DNA of 64,000 bases, taken from sequence record ON210139.1; one strand, written 5' to 3'. The notes under the pieces are model-generated. The model searched no databases. It was given only the letters and a program-made list of their open reading frames with translations, and was not told the origin of the DNA. The DNA comes from Escherichia phage EC128. How positions within the stretch are numbered: position 1 is the first letter of the stretch; each line of letters starts with the position of its first letter. Position numbers and translations under genes: made by a program. Below, piece by piece: positions 27,485 to 50,130 of this stretch.

Positions 27485-28687
27485 ATGAAAGTATGTATTT
27501 TTATGGCTCGAGGTCTTGAAGGTTGTGGTGTAACTAAATTTTCTCTTGAGCAACGTGATTGGTTTATTAAAAATGGTCATGAAGTAACTTTGGTTTATGC
27601 TAAAGATAAATCATTTACTCGTACAAGTTCTCATGACCACAAATCATTTTCAATTCCAGTTATTTTAGCTAAAGAATACGATAAAGCACTTAAGCTGGTA
27701 AATGATTGTGATATTCTAATTATTAATTCTGTTCCTGCTACTTCCGTTCAAGAAGCCACGATTAATAACTATAAAAAACTTTTAGATAATATTAAACCTT
27801 CTATTCGTGTTGTAGTTTATCAGCATGATCATTCTGTTCTTTCTTTGCGTCGAAATTTGGGATTAGAAGAAACTGTTCGTCGAGCTGATGTTATTTTTAG
27901 CCATTCTGATAATGGTGATTTTAATAAAGTTCTGATGAAAGAATGGTATCCAGAAACTGTTTCTCTGTTTGATGATATTGAAGAAGCACCAACAGTATAT
28001 AACTTTCAGCCTCCTATGGATATTGCGAAGGTTCGGTCAACTTATTGGAAAGATGTTTCTGAAATTAACATGAACATCAACCGTTGGATTGGTCGTACGA
28101 CTACATGGAAAGGTTTTTATCAGATGTTTGATTTTCATGAAAAATTCTTAAAACCTGCTGGTAAATCCACTGTAATGGAAGGTCTTGAACGTTCCCCTGC
28201 TTTTATTGCAATTAAGGAAAAAGGTATTCCGTATGAATATTATGGTAATCGTGAGATTGATAAAATGAATCTCACGCCGAATCAACCGGCACAAATCCTA
28301 GATTGTTATATTAATAGTGAAATGCTTGAACGAATGAGTAAATCTGGCTTTGGATATCAGTTGAGTAAACTTAACCAGAAATACTTACAACGCTCACTCG
28401 AATATACTCATCTTGAATTAGGTGCTTGCGGTACAATTCCTGTTTTCTGGAAATCAACGGGTGATAATTTAAAATTCCGTGTTGATAATACTCCTTTGAC
28501 CTCACATGATAGCGGTATCATTTGGTTTGATGAAAATGACATGGAATCAACATTCGAGCGTATTAAAGAATTGTCATCTGACCGAGCTCTTTATGACCGT
28601 GAGCGAGAAAAAGCATATGAATTTTTGTATCAGCACCAAGATTCAAGCTTCTGTTTTAAAGAACAGTTTGACATTATTACAAAATAA
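27485..28687 (+). CDS. a-gt: DNA alpha-glucosyltransferase
   Basis: 400 aa; N-terminus IFMARGLEGCGVTKF. Confidence 0.9.
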   Translation: MKVCIFMARGLEGCGVTKFSLEQRDWFIKNGHEVTLVYAKDKSFTRTSSHDHKSFSIPVILAKEYDKALKLVNDCDILIINSVPATSVQEATINNYKKLLDNIKPSIRVVVYQHDHSVLSLRRNLGLEETVRRADVIFSHSDNGDFNKVLMKEWYPETVSLFDDIEEAPTVYNFQPPMDIAKVRSTYWKDVSEINMNINRWIGRTTTWKGFYQMFDFHEKFLKPAGKSTVMEGLERSPAFIAIKEKGIPYEYYGNREIDKMNLTPNQPAQILDCYINSEMLERMSKSGFGYQLSKLNQKYLQRSLEYTHLELGACGTIPVFWKSTGDNLKFRVDNTPLTSHDSGIIWFDENDMESTFERIKELSSDRALYDREREKAYEFLYQHQDSSFCFKEQFDIITK

Positions 28688-35418: not shown

Positions 35419-38115
35419 ATGAAAGAATTTTATATCTCTATTGAAACAGTCGGAAATAACATCGTTGAACGTTATATTGATGAAAACGGAAAGGAACGTA
35501 CTCGTGAAGTAGAATATCTTCCGACTATGTTTAGGCATTGTAAGGAAGAGTCAAAGTACAAAGACATCTATGGTAAAAATTGCGCTCCTCAAAAATTTCC
35601 ATCAATGAAAGATGCTCGAGATTGGATGAAGCGAATGGAAGACATCGGTCTCGAAGCTCTCGGTATGAACGATTTTAAACTCGCTTATATCAGTGATACA
35701 TATGGTTCAGAAATTGTTTATGACCGAAAATTTGTTCGTGTAGCTAACTGTGACATTGAGGTTACTGGTGATAAATTTCCTGACCCAATGAAAGCTGAAT
35801 ATGAAATTGATGCTATCACTCATTATGATTCAATTGACGATCGTTTTTACGTCTTTGATTTGTTGAATTCAATGTACGGTTCAGTATCAAAATGGGATGC
35901 AAAGTTAGCTGCTAAGCTTGACTGTGAAGGTGGTGATGAAGTTCCTCAAGAAATTCTTGACCGAGTAATTTATATGCCATTTGATAATGAGCGTGATATG
36001 CTCATGGAATATATCAATCTTTGGGAACAGAAACGACCTGCTATTTTTACTGGTTGGAATATTGAGGGATTTGACGTTCCGTATATCATGAATCGCGTTA
36101 AAATGGTTCTCGGTGAACGCAGTATGAAACGTTTCTCTCCAATCGGTCGAGTAAAATCTAAACTAATTCAAAATGTGTACGGTAGCAAAGAAATTTATTC
36201 TATTGATGGCGTATCTATTCTTGATTATTTAGATTTGTATAAGAAATTCGCATTTACTAATTTGCCGTCATTCTCTTTGGAATCAGTTGCTCAACATGAA
36301 ACCAAAAAAGGTAAATTACCATACGACGGTCCTATTAATAAACTTCGTGAGACTAATCATCAACGATACATTAGTTATAACATCATTGACGTAGAATCAG
36401 TTCAAGCAATTGATAAAATTCGCGGGTTTATCGATCTAGTTTTAAGTATGTCTTATTACGCTAAAATGCCTTTTTCTGGTGTAATGAGTCCTATTAAAAC
36501 TTGGGATGCTATTATTTTTAACTCATTGAAAGGTGAACACAAGGTTATTCCTCAACAAGGTTCGCACGTTAAACAAAGTTTTCCGGGTGCATTTGTGTTT
36601 GAACCTAAGCCAATTGCTCGTCGATATATTATGAGTTTTGACTTGACGTCTCTGTATCCGAGTATTATTCGTCAGGTTAACATTAGTCCTGAGACTATTC
36701 GTGGGCAGTTTAAAGTTCATCCAATTCATGAATATATCGCAGGAACAGCTCCTAAACCGAGTGATGAATATTCTTGTTCTCCGAATGGATGGATGTATGA
36801 TAAGCATCAAGAAGGTATCATTCCAAAGGAAATCGCTAAAGTATTTTTCCAGCGTAAAGATTGGAAAAAGAAAATGTTCGCTGAAGAAATGAATGCCGAA
36901 GCTATTAAAAAGATTATTATGAAAGGCGCAGGGTCTTGTTCAACTAAACCAGAAGTTGAACGATATGTTAAGTTCAGTGATGATTTCTTAAATGAACTAT
37001 CGAATTATACTGAATCTGTTCTCAATAGTCTGATTGAGGAATGTGAAAAAGCAGCTACACTTGCTAATACAAATCAGCTGAACCGTAAAATTCTCATTAA
37101 CAGTCTTTATGGTGCTCTTGGTAATATTCATTTCCGTTACTATGATTTGCGAAATGCTACTGCTATCACAATTTTCGGCCAAGTTGGTATTCAGTGGATT
37201 GCTCGTAAAATTAATGAATATCTGAATAAAGTATGCGGAACTAATGATGAAGATTTCATCGCAGCAGGTGATACTGATTCGGTATATGTTTGCGTAGATA
37301 AAGTTATTGAAAAAGTTGGTCTTGACCGATTCAAAGAGCAGAACGATTTAGTTGAATTCATGAATCAGTTCGGTAAGAAAAAGATGGAACCTATGATTGA
37401 TGTTGCATATCGTGAGTTATGTGATTATATGAATAACCGCGAGCATCTGATGCATATGGACCGTGAAGCTATTTCTTGCCCTCCACTTGGTTCAAAGGGC
37501 GTTGGTGGATTTTGGAAAGCGAAAAAGCGTTATGCTCTGAACGTTTATGATATGGAAGATAAACGATTTGCTGAACCGCATCTAAAAATCATGGGTATGG
37601 AAACTCAACAGAGTTCAACACCAAAAGCAGTGCAAGAAGCTCTCGAAGAAAGTATTCGTCGTATTCTTCAGGAAGGTGAAGAGTCTGTCAAAGAATACTA
37701 CAAGAACTTCGAGAAAGAATATCGTCAACTTGACTATAAAGTTATTGCTGAAGTAAAAACTGCGAACGATATAGCAAAATATGATGATAAAGGTTGGCCA
37801 GGATTTAAATGTCCGTTCCATATTCGCGGTGTGCTAACTTATCGTCGAGCTGTTAGTGGTCTGGGTGTAGCTCCAATTTTGGATGGAAATAAAGTAATGG
37901 TTCTTCCATTGCGTGAAGGAAATCCATTTGGTGACAAGTGCATTGCTTGGCCGTCGGGCACAGAACTTCCAAAAGAAATTCGTTCTGATGTACTGTCTTG
38001 GATTGACTACTCAACTTTGTTCCAAAAATCGTTTGTTAAACCGCTTGCGGGTATGTGTGAATCGGCTGGTATGGACTATGAAGAAAAAGCTTCGTTAGAC
38101 TTCCTGTTTGGCTGA
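35419..38115 (+). CDS. 43: DNA polymerase gp43 (family B)
   Basis: 898 aa; exonuclease FDIE and polymerase YGDTDS motifs. Confidence 0.95.
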   Translation: MKEFYISIETVGNNIVERYIDENGKERTREVEYLPTMFRHCKEESKYKDIYGKNCAPQKFPSMKDARDWMKRMEDIGLEALGMNDFKLAYISDTYGSEIVYDRKFVRVANCDIEVTGDKFPDPMKAEYEIDAITHYDSIDDRFYVFDLLNSMYGSVSKWDAKLAAKLDCEGGDEVPQEILDRVIYMPFDNERDMLMEYINLWEQKRPAIFTGWNIEGFDVPYIMNRVKMVLGERSMKRFSPIGRVKSKLIQNVYGSKEIYSIDGVSILDYLDLYKKFAFTNLPSFSLESVAQHETKKGKLPYDGPINKLRETNHQRYISYNIIDVESVQAIDKIRGFIDLVLSMSYYAKMPFSGVMSPIKTWDAIIFNSLKGEHKVIPQQGSHVKQSFPGAFVFEPKPIARRYIMSFDLTSLYPSIIRQVNISPETIRGQFKVHPIHEYIAGTAPKPSDEYSCSPNGWMYDKHQEGIIPKEIAKVFFQRKDWKKKMFAEEMNAEAIKKIIMKGAGSCSTKPEVERYVKFSDDFLNELSNYTESVLNSLIEECEKAATLANTNQLNRKILINSLYGALGNIHFRYYDLRNATAITIFGQVGIQWIARKINEYLNKVCGTNDEDFIAAGDTDSVYVCVDKVIEKVGLDRFKEQNDLVEFMNQFGKKKMEPMIDVAYRELCDYMNNREHLMHMDREAISCPPLGSKGVGGFWKAKKRYALNVYDMEDKRFAEPHLKIMGMETQQSSTPKAVQEALEESIRRILQEGEESVKEYYKNFEKEYRQLDYKVIAEVKTANDIAKYDDKGWPGFKCPFHIRGVLTYRRAVSGLGVAPILDGNKVMVLPLREGNPFGDKCIAWPSGTELPKEIRSDVLSWIDYSTLFQKSFVKPLAGMCESAGMDYEEKASLDFLFG

Positions 38116-38934: not shown

Positions 38935-39186
38935 ATGGAAACTTTAGTAGCAGGTTCAATTTTTATGGTTTTAGTTTCAGGTGTGTTGGCTATTATTATA
39001 TACATGCTTCCATGGTTTATCGCCTTGATGCGTGGGTCAAAATCGACAGTAGGAATCTTTTTCACATCTTTACTGTTTAACTGGTCAATCATTGGTTGGT
39101 TTATTACATTTATTTGGTCAATTGCAGGTGAAACTAAAAAGTCTGCGCAGCCAAATCAGGTAATTATCATCAGAGAGAAGGAATGA
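38935..39186 (+). CDS. imm: immunity (superinfection exclusion) membrane protein Imm
   Basis: 83 aa, two transmembrane helices, between 43 and 42. Confidence 0.6.
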   Translation: METLVAGSIFMVLVSGVLAIIIYMLPWFIALMRGSKSTVGIFFTSLLFNWSIIGWFITFIWSIAGETKKSAQPNQVIIIREKE

Positions 39187-39332
39187 AAAGCAAAATTATA
39201 GCAGCATTGCTTTTAATCTTGATGGTTATAATAAGTATATACTATAGTGTAACGGTTCCTCTTATGATTCCAACTATTATTTTAGGTTGGAGTTTATTAC
39301 TGTTACAAATTAAATATGAATGCATCAATTGA
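39183..39332 (+). CDS. small membrane peptide (49 aa)
   Basis: hand-translated; ATGA overlap with imm. Confidence 0.35.
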   Translation: MKSKIIAALLLILMVIISIYYSVTVPLMIPTIILGWSLLLLQIKYECIN

Positions 39333-39339
39333 GGTTTAA

Positions 39340-40080
39340 ATGATTAACGATTATATGACAGTTGAAGAAATCCGTCTTGATTTGGGTCTTGCATTAAAGG
39401 AAAAAGATTTCGTAATTGATAAAACCGGGGTTAAAACTATTGAAATTATTGGTGCATCATTTGTAGCAGATGAACCTTTTATTTTTGGCGCTCTTAATGA
39501 TGAATACATTCAGCGTGAACTTGAATGGTATAAATCTAAGAGCTTGTTCGTTAAAGATATTCCAGGTGAAACACCGAAGATTTGGCAGCAGGTAGCATCT
39601 TCTAAAGGCGAAATTAACTCGAATTATGGTTGGGCTATCTGGTCAGAAGATAACTATGCTCAGTATGATATGTGTTTAGCTGAACTTGGTCAAAATCCTG
39701 ATTCTCGACGTGGTATCATGATTTATACTCGTCCATCCATGCAATTTGACTACAATAAAGATGGTATGTCAGATTTCATGTGTACGAATACAGTACAGTA
39801 CCTGATTCGTGATAAGAAAGTCAATGCGGTTGTTAGCATGAGAAGCAATGATTGCTGGGCAGGCTATCGTAATGATTATGCTTGGCAAAAATACGTACTA
39901 GATAAATTAGTATCTGATTTGAATGCAGGCGACCCATCGCGGCAATATAAAGCAGGTTCTATTATATGGAACGTTGGAAGTCTTCATGTGTACGAAAATC
40001 AGTTTTATTTAGTTGACCATTGGTGGAACACCGGTGAGACTCATATTGCTAAAAAGGATTATACTGGAAAATGGAAGTAA
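39340..40080 (+). CDS. 42: dCMP hydroxymethylase gp42
   Basis: 246 aa, thymidylate-synthase-like. Confidence 0.9.
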   Translation: MINDYMTVEEIRLDLGLALKEKDFVIDKTGVKTIEIIGASFVADEPFIFGALNDEYIQRELEWYKSKSLFVKDIPGETPKIWQQVASSKGEINSNYGWAIWSEDNYAQYDMCLAELGQNPDSRRGIMIYTRPSMQFDYNKDGMSDFMCTNTVQYLIRDKKVNAVVSMRSNDCWAGYRNDYAWQKYVLDKLVSDLNAGDPSRQYKAGSIIWNVGSLHVYENQFYLVDHWWNTGETHIAKKDYTGKWK

Positions 40081-40712
40081 ATGTGCCACATGTTTATAAG
40101 TATAAACATCCTAAAACTAAAAAGTGGTATATAGGAAGTCATGATGGTCACAACCCGAATTATGACGGTTCGGGTGTAGTTTGGCAACATGCTAAAAAGA
40201 AATATGGAATAAAATCCTTTAATAAAGAAATATTATATGAAGGACCAATGTTTAGACAGGTTGAAGAAATTATTTTAACTTGTTTAGATGCTGCTAATTG
40301 TCCGGATTCATATAATTTAAAGAATGAAGCATGGGGAGGAAGTTTTCCAGGCAAATTAAATGGAATGTACGGTAAAAAACTATCTCCAGAAGAAAGATAT
40401 AAGTGCGGAAATGCCTTTCGTGGAATCAAGCGTCCTGATCATTCTAAAAGAATGAAAGGCGAAGGTAATCCAATGTATGGTAAAAATGAGCAGGCATATG
40501 GAATTATAAATCGAGCAAAGGAAAATTCTGGTAAAACTTATGAAGAAATTTTTGGCGCAGAAAAAGCTAAAATAATTAAAGAAACGATGTCTAAAAATCG
40601 TAAAGGAAAACCTCATAATTTGATAGAAAAAATATGTCCGCATTGCGGACTAAAAGGACGTGGGCCAAATATGACAAGATACCATTTTGACAAATGTAAG
40701 GCACTTAAATGA
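40071..40712 (+). CDS. free-standing GIY-YIG-like homing endonuclease (possibly segA)
   Basis: KKWYIGSH...YDGSG, NUMOD-like repeats, C-terminal CPHCG zinc motif. Confidence 0.6.
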   Translation: MEVNVPHVYKYKHPKTKKWYIGSHDGHNPNYDGSGVVWQHAKKKYGIKSFNKEILYEGPMFRQVEEIILTCLDAANCPDSYNLKNEAWGGSFPGKLNGMYGKKLSPEERYKCGNAFRGIKRPDHSKRMKGEGNPMYGKNEQAYGIINRAKENSGKTYEEIFGAEKAKIIKETMSKNRKGKPHNLIEKICPHCGLKGRGPNMTRYHFDKCKALK

Positions 40713-41551
40713 TTCAATTCGTAATTCCAAGCTATCAACGCGTAGGGGCAGTTTCTGCCCTTGATATGTTTCCGACTGATTATGAACCACATATTGTAGT
40801 GCGTGAACACGAAGAAAAAGCTTATTATGATGCTTATGGGTCTAAAGCTAAAATTGTAACTATTCCTGATGATGTTAATGGAATTGCCGGTACTCGTAAA
40901 GCAATTACTGATATGTATGCAGGTCAACGAATCTGGATGATTGATGATGATACTACTATTCGTATGAGTTCAATACGAAAGAGAGACGATAAACGGCGCG
41001 TAGATAAAATTAATCAATTAACTCGTGAACAGTTCTATGAATTAATTCAATACGTTGAGGATGCTATGGATTGCGGGTATTATCACGGTCATGCTCGTCT
41101 ACCAATTTTTAAAATTACTTCATCTTGGGGTAATTATCGTGAAAACTCATATGGATTCACGAATACATGGTATGACCTCGGAAAACTTACGACAGAACAA
41201 ATTGGGTATGGAAAAATTGATTTATGTGAAGATATGTACGCATTTCTCAATTTAATTAATCAAGGTTATCCGCATTTGGCCTTGTTCAAATATCTAGTTG
41301 TATCTGGAAAATCACACGCTCCCGGCGGGTGCAGTTCAATTCGTAGTAATTCTAAACATAATAGAGCGCTTGAACAAATCAATAGAGAGTTTCCAGAGCA
41401 AGCTTGTTGGAAAACTTCTAATATTGAAAAACGAAAATCGTTGGGTGAAGAAGACGAGCCATTAAAGGTTCTTCGCATGTGTGTTTCTCGTAAAGAAAAA
41501 TCAGAAGCATTTCATAAGTTTAATGCTATTCATCCAATAGCAGTTGATTAA
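40709..41551 (+). CDS. 280-aa protein at the beta-gt locus; possibly a glucosyltransferase
   Basis: position between 42 and uvsX; shorter than the 351 aa I recall for T4 beta-gt. Confidence 0.45.
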   Translation: MIQFVIPSYQRVGAVSALDMFPTDYEPHIVVREHEEKAYYDAYGSKAKIVTIPDDVNGIAGTRKAITDMYAGQRIWMIDDDTTIRMSSIRKRDDKRRVDKINQLTREQFYELIQYVEDAMDCGYYHGHARLPIFKITSSWGNYRENSYGFTNTWYDLGKLTTEQIGYGKIDLCEDMYAFLNLINQGYPHLALFKYLVVSGKSHAPGGCSSIRSNSKHNRALEQINREFPEQACWKTSNIEKRKSLGEEDEPLKVLRMCVSRKEKSEAFHKFNAIHPIAVD

Positions 41552-41628
41552 TGCCTAAATTTATTGTGTTATAATTACTCTATCTTTAACCAGTGAGGAA
41601 AATATAATGATGCCTATGGAAAAAATGA

Positions 41629-42810
41629 ATGTCTATTGCAGATTTAAAATCCCGTTTGATTAAAGCTTCCACTTCTAAAATGACTGCTGAACTGACTACA
41701 TCTAAATTCTTTAATGAAAAGGATGTAATTCGTACAAAAATTCCAATGCTTAATATTGCTATTTCTGGTGCGATTGATGGTGGTATGCAGTCTGGTTTAA
41801 CTATTTTCGCAGGGCCTTCTAAACACTTTAAATCAAATATGTCTTTGACTATGGTTGCGGCGTATTTGAACAAATATCCTGACGCGGTTTGTCTATTCTA
41901 TGATAGCGAATTTGGTATTACTCCAGCTTATTTGCGATCCATGGGAGTTGACCCGGAACGAGTAATTCATACGCCGATTCAGTCAGTTGAACAACTGAAA
42001 ATTGATATGGTGAACCAGCTTGAAGCTATTGAGCGTGGTGAAAAGGTTATTGTATTCATCGACTCAATCGGTAATATGGCTTCTAAGAAAGAAACGGAAG
42101 ATGCCTTGAATGAAAAATCTGTGGCAGATATGACTCGTGCTAAATCACTGAAGTCATTATTCCGTATTGTTACTCCTTATTTTAGCATTAAAAATATTCC
42201 ATGTGTTGCGGTTAACCATACAATTGAAACAATTGAAATGTTTAGTAAAACCGTGATGACAGGTGGTACAGGCGTAATGTATTCGGCTGATACTGTATTC
42301 ATTATCGGTAAGCGTCAGATTAAAGATGGTTCTGATCTTCAGGGGTATCAATTTGTTCTAAATGTAGAAAAATCTCGTACCGTTAAAGAAAAAAGTAAAT
42401 TCTTTATTGATGTTAAATTTGACGGTGGTATCGATCCTTATTCTGGATTGTTAGATATGGCTCTAGAATTAGGATTTGTAGTAAAACCTAAAAATGGCTG
42501 GTATGCTCGTGAATTTCTTGACGAAGAAACCGGCGAGATGATTCGCGAAGAAAAATCTTGGCGTGCAAAAGATACCAACTGCACTACATTCTGGGGTCCT
42601 TTATTTAAGCATCAACCATTCCGAGATGCTATTAAACGTGCTTATCAGTTAGGTGCTATTGATAGTAATGAAATTGTTGAAGCTGAAGTTGATGAATTGA
42701 TTAACTCAAAGGTTGAAAAATTTAAATCTCCAGAAAGTAAAAGTAAATCAGCTGCTGATTTAGAAACTGACCTCGAACAGTTAAGTGATATGGAAGAATT
42801 TAATGAATAA
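41629..42810 (+). CDS. uvsX: recombinase UvsX (RecA-like)
   Basis: 393 aa, RecA fold, acidic C-terminal tail. Confidence 0.95.
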   Translation: MSIADLKSRLIKASTSKMTAELTTSKFFNEKDVIRTKIPMLNIAISGAIDGGMQSGLTIFAGPSKHFKSNMSLTMVAAYLNKYPDAVCLFYDSEFGITPAYLRSMGVDPERVIHTPIQSVEQLKIDMVNQLEAIERGEKVIVFIDSIGNMASKKETEDALNEKSVADMTRAKSLKSLFRIVTPYFSIKNIPCVAVNHTIETIEMFSKTVMTGGTGVMYSADTVFIIGKRQIKDGSDLQGYQFVLNVEKSRTVKEKSKFFIDVKFDGGIDPYSGLLDMALELGFVVKPKNGWYAREFLDEETGEMIREEKSWRAKDTNCTTFWGPLFKHQPFRDAIKRAYQLGAIDSNEIVEAEVDELINSKVEKFKSPESKSKSAADLETDLEQLSDMEEFNE

Positions 42811-45144: not shown

Positions 45145-45438
45145 ATGAAAAAATTTGTTTTTGCTGCAATTTTTGCTTTAGCTTCTTGTGCTGCTCAGCC
45201 TGCTATGGCAGGTTATGATAAAGATTTGTGCGAATGGTCTATGACTGCAGATCAGACTGAAGTTGAAACTCAAATTGAAGCGGATATTATGAATATCGTT
45301 GAGCGCGATCGTCCTGAAATGAAAGCTGAAGTGCAAAAACAACTTAAGTCTGGTGGTGTAATGCAGTATAATTATGTTCTGTATTGCGATAAAAACTTTA
45401 ATAATAAAAATATCATCGCTGAAGTGGTAGGTGAATAA
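45145..45438 (+). CDS. sp: periplasmic protein, Spackle-like (tentative)
   Basis: 97 aa with cleavable signal peptide ...AQPAMA. Confidence 0.45.
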   Translation: MKKFVFAAIFALASCAAQPAMAGYDKDLCEWSMTADQTEVETQIEADIMNIVERDRPEMKAEVQKQLKSGGVMQYNYVLYCDKNFNNKNIIAEVVGE

Positions 45439-46064
45439 TGCTTTATCAAATGCACAAGTGTAAAGACACGTACAAATATAAAGGTGCCCAGTGTTATATC
45501 ATTAATCGTGAAAACGCAGGTCCAGGCCATTCGCATCAATCACGGTTTGTATTCGTTAAAAATAATGAAATTATAGCAGTTGCTAATTATATGCTTGTGA
45601 CCAATGATGTTAATCCGGTGCCTTTCACATATGACAATCTAATGGACTTGGCATATGATTATAATTGGTTTAATCATGATACTTTGGCTCATATTGAAGG
45701 CGTAGGATTTGACATCTCTTATTCTAGTTATTCGTTGTGCCCTATGAGCCGAGCTCATAAAGAGCCTGAATATTTTTCATTTCGTCGGCGTGTAGACTTT
45801 AAACGCAGTACAGAGTATGTCGGTGGAATCTTTGTTAAAGATAATCGAATTACTCGCATTATTTATCCTTTGGGCTTTGGTCAAAAAGATATTGATGTTG
45901 ATTTAGACTTTACTGAAAATATCATTAATCATATTGCTTCTGTGTATTTTGATATTGATCACAAAATTGTAATATGTGGATATGAATTGCCATCTGAAAA
46001 ACAGTCTAAAGTAAATGTTTCTATTGATGACCAAATTTTTAATGCTTTTATGAATAGAGGTTAA
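45438..46064 (+). CDS. hypothetical protein (61.2 position)
   Basis: 208-aa ORF, ATGA overlap. Confidence 0.55.
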   Translation: MLYQMHKCKDTYKYKGAQCYIINRENAGPGHSHQSRFVFVKNNEIIAVANYMLVTNDVNPVPFTYDNLMDLAYDYNWFNHDTLAHIEGVGFDISYSSYSLCPMSRAHKEPEYFSFRRRVDFKRSTEYVGGIFVKDNRITRIIYPLGFGQKDIDVDLDFTENIINHIASVYFDIDHKIVICGYELPSEKQSKVNVSIDDQIFNAFMNRG

Positions 46065-47548: not shown

Positions 47549-48888
<1,340 letters not shown>

Positions 48889-48950: not shown

Positions 48951-49466
48951 ATGCCACATTTCAACGAATGTAGTCAACTGATCGAAGGCGCTGATAAAGC
49001 TCAAAATGAGTATTGGGATATTCTCGGTGATGAAAAAGACCCGCTGCAGGTTATGCTTGATATGCAGAAATCTTTACAGGTTCGTTTAGCAAATGACCGC
49101 GAATACTGTTATCATCCAGATAAATTAGAAACTGCCGGTGATGTTGTTTCTTGGATGCGTGAACAAAAAGACTGTATTGATGATGAATTCCGCGAACTTC
49201 TGACTTCTCTTGGTGAAATGTCACGTGGTGAAAAAGATGCATCGGCAGTTTGGAAAAAATGGAAAGCACGTTATATTGAAGCGCAAGAAAAACGCATTGA
49301 TGAAATGTCCCCAGAAGATCAGCTCGAAATTAAATTTGAGCTTGTGGATATATTTCATTTCGTATTAAATATGTTTGCTGGCCTTGGAATGAATGCGGAA
49401 GAAATCTTTAAACTTTATTATTTGAAAAATAAACATAATTTTGAACGTCAAGATAATGGGTATTAA
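48951..49466 (+). CDS. 56: dCTPase/dCTP pyrophosphatase gp56
   Basis: 171 aa, MazG-like; between dam and soc. Confidence 0.8.
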   Translation: MPHFNECSQLIEGADKAQNEYWDILGDEKDPLQVMLDMQKSLQVRLANDREYCYHPDKLETAGDVVSWMREQKDCIDDEFRELLTSLGEMSRGEKDASAVWKKWKARYIEAQEKRIDEMSPEDQLEIKFELVDIFHFVLNMFAGLGMNAEEIFKLYYLKNKHNFERQDNGY

Positions 49467-50130
49467 ACAAAAATTTTATAGAACATATATAGTAAAAGTT
49501 AGGACGCCGAAAGGCGTCTTTTGGTACGCTGGGAAACATGAATCATTTATTGTAAATCCATATGATGATAAATATCCGGGGTCAGGCAAAATACTATGGA
49601 ACATATATCGTAAGTATGGTTTTAATTATAAAATACGTTGGTCAAAATGCCATGGTTCTAGAGAAAAATCATATGAAGTTGAACGCGAGCTAATATCTGC
49701 ATTAAAACGTAAACACCCAGATACTTGCATTAATATTTCTCCTGGTGGTCAGGGTGGAGAAGGAAGAAAATGGACTGAGCAACAACGATTAGAACATAAA
49801 CTTAGATTAAACAATCCTGAAACAAAAACTCGGATGAAGAATTCACAACGTATAGCCCAAAATAGAGCAGAACGAAAAGCTCGGCAATCTGAAGTAATGA
49901 AAAAGTTTTATTCGAATGGCGGAAATAAAAAGATTTCAGAAGGAACTTCAAGGGCGCAAAGAAAAGCGCCGCATTGGCATGAACCGCTTAAAAGCGAAAT
50001 ACATGAGTTATGGGTTTCTTTAGGTAAACCAGCAACAGGCCCGGTTGTAAAGGCGCTTAAAGGAAAATATGATGTAACAAGTTCAGCTCTTAAGAATTTA
50101 ATTTACTTATTCAGAAAAGAAGATATATAA
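49456..50130 (+). CDS. segF: free-standing GIY-YIG-like homing endonuclease (SegF-like)
   Basis: FWYAGKH...YPGSG, NUMOD-like repeats; adjacent to gene 56. Confidence 0.55.
   Translation: MGIKQKFYRTYIVKVRTPKGVFWYAGKHESFIVNPYDDKYPGSGKILWNIYRKYGFNYKIRWSKCHGSREKSYEVERELISALKRKHPDTCINISPGGQGGEGRKWTEQQRLEHKLRLNNPETKTRMKNSQRIAQNRAERKARQSEVMKKFYSNGGNKKISEGTSRAQRKAPHWHEPLKSEIHELWVSLGKPATGPVVKALKGKYDVTSSALKNLIYLFRKEDI

Follow-up and report, generated by a model that had tools for sequence, protein, structure and literature searches.

We analyzed a 64-kb window of Escherichia phage EC128 DNA (the whole stretch under study, to which all positions refer) and focused on an ORF located between gene 42 and uvsX. 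The ORF call gave an intact reading frame of 280 aa on the + strand at 40709..41551, which starts with ATG and encodes a protein with the N-terminus MIQFVIPSYQR. Upstream we found gene 43 (DNA polymerase, 35419..38115), the imm-region ORFs and gene 42, and downstream uvsX (41629..42810), past which genes 40 and 41 follow. This is the order 43-imm-42-[beta-gt]-uvsX-40-41 of the T4 record NC_000866, with the 280-aa ORF in place of T4 beta-gt. An earlier note on this DNA had placed the ORF by the succession of gene 42, the ORF and uvsX. Indeed, uvsX is the next gene on one side, but on the other side gene 42 is not adjacent, as a seg-like ORF of 213 aa (40071..40712, + strand) is intercalated after it. 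The note had also set the ORF apart from T4 beta-gt by its length and its N-terminus, and we could confirm both differences from the ORF and NC_000866: T4 beta-gt comprises 351 aa and begins with MKIAIINMG.

The intercalated ORF encodes a GIY-YIG Seg-like homing endonuclease (32% identity to T4 SegA, E 5e-9; PHROG 314 'homing endonuclease', E 1.8e-31). It is inserted exactly at the stop-start junction of gene 42 and the transferase gene, where an overlap of these two genes was seen in T2, T6, Lutter and Geo. Only 77 phage records carry this ORF, once each and in 71 of the 77 at an identity of at least 99%; one record names it SegD. The genes on either side vary far more, and such uniformity would be expected of a mobile gene that has spread recently. 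We observed that the final ~90 nt of gene 42 (~39990-40080, + strand) are densely substituted compared to phages without the insert, which looks like either a cleavage-resistant homing-endonuclease target or a co-conversion tract. Judged from the sequences, the insertion and the pattern at the 3' end of gene 42 would fit homing. A second Seg-like homing endonuclease ORF of 229 aa (PHROG 314, E 2e-23) is located at 49441-50130 (+ strand) and overlaps the end of a gp56-like gene. Downstream of gene 41 we further recognized a homologue of the anti-DarT factor AdfA (45438-46064, + strand; 208 aa, PF23813, E 5e-137). The window also encodes a Dam-type D12 adenine methyltransferase (48109..48888, + strand; 259 aa, PF02086, E 6.5e-51), directly preceded by an ORF of 186 aa (47549..48109, + strand) that matches phrog_8706 and has no Pfam match.

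Within 39100-41800 neither promoter-like sites (12 versus 12.4 expected from shuffles) nor terminator-like sites (2 versus 1.3 expected) were observed in excess, and no tRNAs were found in the 64-kb window. One hairpin picked up by the terminator-like scan lies inside codons 12-19 of the 280-aa ORF (40743-40763, + strand; 9-bp stem, TAGGGGCAG TTT CTGCCCTTG). T2, T6 and Solly share its sequence unchanged; as such sites are no commoner than in shuffles, we claim no function for it.

Identity and predicted fold of the 280-aa protein

Applying a Pfam search we found that residues 3-207 of the protein match positions 2-205 of the 205 positions of PF20691 (TET-associated glycosyltransferase, TAGT) with 39.1 bits at a gathering cutoff of 27.5. 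PHROG 842 'beta-glucosyl-HMC-alpha-glucosyltransferase' was matched with E 3.9e-87, whereas NCBIfam holds no model for the protein. Over its full length of 280 aa the protein is 96% identical to the proteins that occupy this slot in T2 (AP018813, MH751506) and T6 (AP018814), and it is 99% identical to YP_010071787 of phage Lutter, the "beta-glucosyl-HMC-alpha-glucosyltransferase" of RefSeq. The gene is widely spread: megablast returned 478 phage records with 90-99.8% identity, and the hosts of the matched Tequatrovirus phages are Escherichia, Shigella, Yersinia, Salmonella and Citrobacter. From a pN/pS of 0.07-0.10 compared to T2, Solly and EH2 we can conclude that the gene is under purifying selection. 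No similarity to the two T4 glucosyltransferases was detected, as BLASTP produced only chance matches to T4 beta-gt (best E = 4.4) and nothing better than E 0.87 to T4 alpha-gt, and the Pfam search gave no match to PF09198 (beta-gt). The earlier note had suggested a T2/T6-type enzyme in the beta-gt slot and had named full-length high identity to T4 beta-gt as the observation that would speak against it; the 96% identity, PHROG 842, PF20691 and the lack of any likeness to beta-gt all support its suggestion. We are therefore highly confident that the ORF is a T2/T6-type beta-glucosyl-HMC-alpha-glucosyltransferase gene (ba-gt, ggt; Pfam TAGT), and no evidence contradicts this assignment. With the ba-gt genes of T2 and T6 it has in common the slot between gene 42 and uvsX, the length of 280 aa, the partner gene alpha-gt and all family-invariant residues, while ~11 amino-acid differences separate it from each of them and a seg-like ORF is inserted upstream of it.

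With 10 homologues as input, AlphaFold2 gave a model with a mean pLDDT of 71.6 and a pTM of 0.74. Its N-terminal half is a confident alternation of strands and helices (pLDDT 80-94 for residues 1-80), although the model is moderate overall, with pLDDT <50 at residues 127-149 and 195-210. Searching viral models with Foldseek, we obtained the ba-gt protein of Klebsiella phage PKO111 as the best match (E 2e-32), followed by TAGT-domain proteins and then by GT2/GT-A proteins. According to the model the protein has a GT-A fold (nucleotide-diphospho-sugar transferase) and not the GT-B fold with two Rossmann domains; a published AF3 model of the T6 protein shows a GT-A fold as well (PMC13216743). A sequence search of the PDB revealed no solved relative of the family.

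For better evaluation of individual residues we collected 358 TAGT representatives at 50% identity in an exhaustive HMMER search (E up to 0.001), aligned 142 of them and counted conservation. All 142 members have D80, D175 and G207, and R11 is Arg in each of the 138 members aligned at this position. Nearly as strongly conserved are D79 (Asp in 140/142), G206 (Gly in 140/142), G186 (Gly in 137/142), R212 (134/142), D81 (Asp in 133/142), R63 (133/142) and E174 (120/142), and the window protein keeps every one of these residues. The codon of R11 (40739..40741, + strand) belongs to an N-terminal IPSYxR loop, which by analogy to the 'IPxYN' motif of GT2 enzymes would be a nucleotide-sugar binding loop. 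D79-D80-D81 (40943..40951, + strand; GATGATGAT) form a DxD-type motif conserved in the family, which in the model comes after a beta-strand predicted with confidence (residues 74-79) and, by analogy to GT2 enzymes, would be expected to hold the metal and the diphosphate of UDP-glucose. Since the donor is UDP-alpha-glucose and the linkage of the product is beta, the enzyme must be an inverting transferase, and D175 in the 'CED' sequence (E174-D175, 41228..41233, + strand) is a candidate catalytic base resembling the 'ED'/'TED' of inverting GT2 enzymes.

T4 beta-gt uses UDP-glucose and makes a beta linkage on hmC-containing DNA. The window enzyme has the slot, the UDP-glucose donor and the beta linkage on hmC DNA in common with it (PF09198; PDB 1JG7), but the sequences are unrelated, the lengths differ and the predicted GT-A fold contrasts with GT-B in T4. 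The acceptors differ too, as T4 beta-gt acts on bare hmC and ba-gt on alpha-glucosyl-hmC. Compared to the TAGT family at large, the whole PF20691 profile is matched, and the GT-A fold as well as R11, DDD, ED, GG and R212 are conserved. However, hmC arises here at the level of the nucleotide, through a dCMP hydroxymethylase, and not through a TET/JBP dioxygenase acting on DNA, and the acceptor is a sugar that is already on the base. An association with TET/JBP is not expected, because gp42 supplies the hmC here, which holds for all T-even phages.

Partner genes and published sugar patterns

The alpha-glucosyl-hmC acceptor is made by a DNA alpha-glucosyltransferase, and the window contains the gene of this enzyme (alpha-gt, 27485..28687, + strand). 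The encoded protein shares 395 of 400 residues with T4 alpha-gt (99%) and matches PF11440 (E 1.7e-258) and PHROG 2888. The source of hmC is gene 42 (39340..40080, + strand), which is syntenic with T4 gene 42 and encodes a dCMP hydroxymethylase of 246 aa (PF00303, thymidylate-synthase family). A dCTPase/dUTPase of 171 aa, which prevents unmodified C from entering the DNA, is encoded at 48951..49466 (+ strand; PF08761 dUTPase_2; PHROG 173, NTP pyrophosphohydrolase), and its size and map position suggest that it is gp56. With alpha-gt, gp42 and this gp56-type dCTPase present in the window, the acceptor for the second glucosylation can be made. A tblastn search with T4 beta-gt through the whole 64-kb window yielded no match (E 8.8), and the gene set of the window is thus alpha-gt plus TAGT without beta-gt, the T2/T6 type. 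It is unlikely that beta-gt lies elsewhere in the genome, beyond the 64-kb window, because all three glucosyltransferase types occur together in only 1 of 753 genomes (PMC13216743). Our analysis shows the identity and family of the protein, its fold and its conserved residues, together with the partner genes and the lack of beta-gt in the window.

The survey of these 753 genomes equates ba-gt with the PF20691 TAGT and reports that phage genomes generally pair a TAGT with alpha-GT or beta-GT (PMC13216743, NAR 2026). The combination of alpha-GT and TAGT is the common arrangement, while the T4 pair of alpha-gt and beta-gt was found in 6 of the 753 genomes (PMC13216743). Alpha-gt together with ba-gt is the usual state in Tequatrovirus and T4 is the exception, a point that was absent from the earlier note.

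We take the chemistry and the phenotypes from papers on orthologues that are at least 96% identical, so that they apply to EC128 by analogy. According to the classical figures T2 DNA carries ~70% alpha-glucosyl-hmC, 5% gentiobiosyl-hmC and ~25% bare hmC, and T6 DNA ~3% alpha-glucosyl-hmC, 72% gentiobiosyl-hmC and ~25% bare hmC (bioRxiv 10.64898/2026.02.25.707755). In the Durham phages Geo, BGP and EL, HPLC/MS revealed 5hmdC, alpha-glucosyl and alpha-gentiobiosyl forms at ~1:2:2, whereas Solly, EH2 and others contain about one-third 5hmdC and two-thirds gentiobiosyl forms (PMC13390438, AEM 2026). Beta-glucosyl-hmC was absent from all Durham phages measured, and the authors ascribe the second glucose to the TAGT in the position of T4 beta-gt (PMC13390438). 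The suggestion of the earlier note that hmC may be decorated differently from T4 is supported by Geo and EL, whose proteins are two residues apart from ours and whose DNA contains alpha-glucosyl- and gentiobiosyl-hmC and no beta-glucosyl-hmC (PMC13390438).

Alleles and the extent of di-glucosylation

By megablast the window gene is 99.8, 99.8 and 98.9% identical at the nucleotide level to the Durham TAGT genes of Geo, BGP and EL, respectively. The window protein is two residues apart from the proteins of Geo, EL and Lutter. At the nucleotide level the gene is 2 nt apart from the Geo and Lutter genes, and both changes are nonsynonymous, resulting in R46K (codon 40844-40846, + strand) and R233C (codon 41405-41407, + strand). 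These two replacements are private to the window allele, and the exact allele was found in no record of the phage collection searched. Of 142 family members, 91 have a gap at position 46, and K, T, R or S is found at position 233, so that both replacements are probably tolerated. Regarding the remaining variable positions we observed two haplotypes: V50 I89 K95 R97 I101 S202 H203 in the window, Lutter, Geo and EL, and I50 M89 R95 C97 V101 A202 Q203 in T2, T6, Solly and EH2. The seg-like ORF that follows gene 42 in the window is absent from this place in Geo. On the basis of the allele, a sugar pattern like that of Geo would be the best guess for EC128.

Both T2 records (L003:4283-5125 and L010:1786-2628, both on the - strand) carry R11H and P251S, while the rest of the T2 haplotype is common to the highly di-glucosylating phages Solly, EH2 and T6. 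R11H hits the Arg of the IPSYxR loop that is found in 138 of 138 aligned TAGT family members. Judged from this position, R11H may be a candidate explanation for the low gentiobiosyl-hmC level (~5%) of T2.

The two public T6 records each show a different apparent lesion. In MH550421 (L008:301-1143) an amber TAG is present at codon 10 of ba-gt and the CDS is annotated from Met20, and in AP018814 / RefSeq NC_054907 (L004:4135-4974) one GAT of the GATGATGAT repeat is lost, which changes DDD to DD within the near-invariant acidic motif. The resulting version of 279 aa is the RefSeq protein and served as the TAGT query in the literature. Two different ba-gt lesions are odd for a phage with 72% gentiobiosyl-hmC; they could be stock mutations or errors of sequencing or assembly. 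We considered the missing Asp as a hallmark of T6 tied to high di-glucosylation and rejected this idea, because the second T6 record has DDD and the deletion comprises one unit of the GATGATGAT repeat.

A tentative reading of these alleles, which we consider possible but doubtful, is that natural ba-gt alleles set the extent of di-glucosylation, with R11H as a possible cause of the ~5% level in T2 and the window phage as an intermediate 'Geo-type'. The split into two haplotypes fits this reading, as the window/Geo/EL type goes along with ~40% gentiobiosyl-hmC and the Solly/EH2/T6 type with about two-thirds or more.

A related question is whether the gene, although a genuine ba-gt, is quantitatively altered in allele or expression and possibly hypomorphic, so that EC128 would contain little gentiobiosyl-hmC, as T2 does. 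The cause could be R46K and R233C, since the two nucleotides that set the gene apart from its nearest alleles (Geo, Lutter) each change an amino acid, or the seg-like insertion, which might alter expression by breaking the ATGA overlap with gene 42: where gene 42 and ba-gt share a stop-start overlap in T2, T6 and Lutter, both genes overlap with the seg-like ORF here. Moreover, the T2 allele is 96% identical to ours and goes with only ~5% di-glucosylation. However, the two replacements affect a frequently gapped and a variable position, every strongly conserved residue is intact, an ATGA still joins the ba-gt start codon to a stop codon upstream, and the occurrence of the same insertion in 77 phages suggests that it is tolerated, which makes an altered gene improbable. 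We regard it as very unlikely that this TAGT-family enzyme has another specificity and transfers a different sugar or acts directly on bare hmC or beta-glucosyl-hmC. The family is broad, as the 358 representatives collected at 50% identity show. Among 753 phage genomes, 288 have a TAGT but neither alpha-gt nor beta-gt, and a TAGT can be partnered with either of these two glucosyltransferases (PMC13216743), from which it follows that specificities within the family probably differ. But the copy studied here is at least 96% identical to the ones that make gentiobiosyl-hmC in T6, Geo and EL, and it co-occurs with alpha-gt. An arabinosyltransferase of the RB69 type was set aside, given that alpha-gt is present in the window and that the measured phages with a near-identical gene carry glucose and not arabinose. 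Finally, a shortened or diverged beta-gt placing beta-monoglucose on hmC as in T4 has nothing but its location between gene 42 and uvsX in its favour and is refuted by the BLASTP result (E 4.4) and the GT-A fold as opposed to GT-B in T4 (fold search; PMC13216743), in line with the lack of beta-glucosyl-hmC in measured relatives.

Proposed pathway and sensitivity to host defences

For a T2/T6-type ba-gt we propose the following pathway. gp42 would make hm-dCMP, and the phage polymerase would incorporate hmC into the DNA. Alpha-gt would then use host UDP-glucose to attach an alpha-linked glucose to hmC, and ba-gt would add the glucose of a second UDP-glucose at O6 of the first in beta-1,6 linkage, resulting in alpha-gentiobiosyl-hmC. 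In this step D79-D81 most likely bind the diphosphate of UDP together with a divalent metal, and the base would be D175. The phage DNA should consequently hold unglucosylated hmC, alpha-glucosyl-hmC and gentiobiosyl-hmC and no beta-glucosyl-hmC, in a ratio of hmC, alpha-glucosyl and gentiobiosyl forms that may approach 1:2:2, judged from the Geo/EL allele. Di-glucosylation would shield the DNA from readers of alpha-monoglucosyl-hmC such as the Brig1 glycosylase and the BapA glucosidase, while the bare hmC, about one quarter to one third, would stay open to hmC-specific defences.

Experiments with T6 illustrate these effects. Deletion of ba-gt from T6 abolished gentiobiosyl-hmC and left alpha-glucosyl-hmC only (PMC11078745, Nature 2024), and in plaque assays and in vitro the deletion phage was more sensitive to Brig1 (PMC11078745). 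The statement of the earlier note that glycosylation affects the sensitivity to defences is thereby documented. In a further study, BapA stripped glucose from the DNA of a T6 delta-g-gt phage and did not remove it from gentiobiosyl-hmC (bioRxiv 10.64898/2026.02.25.707755).

Taken together, the ba-gt finding is correct and already known, and it represents the commonest genomic arrangement, so that the surprise lies with T4. The ba-gt gene of T2 and T6 was reportedly cloned in 1993 by Winkler and Ruger, in work that the references of PMC11946311 give as NAR 21:1500; the deletion in T6 followed in 2024 and the survey of 753 genomes in 2026. Our analysis adds nothing new to this record and is of use for annotation and for the choice of phages. 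Which host defences see a T-even phage is decided by the sugars on its hmC, and the defences concerned include McrBC, GmrSD/BrxU, the glycosylases Brig1 and Brig3, the BapA glucosidase and CRISPR-Cas. For EC128 the set of alpha-gt and ba-gt predicts gentiobiosyl-hmC and some bare hmC in the DNA, and with it a profile of defence sensitivity that would be T2/T6-like and not T4-like.
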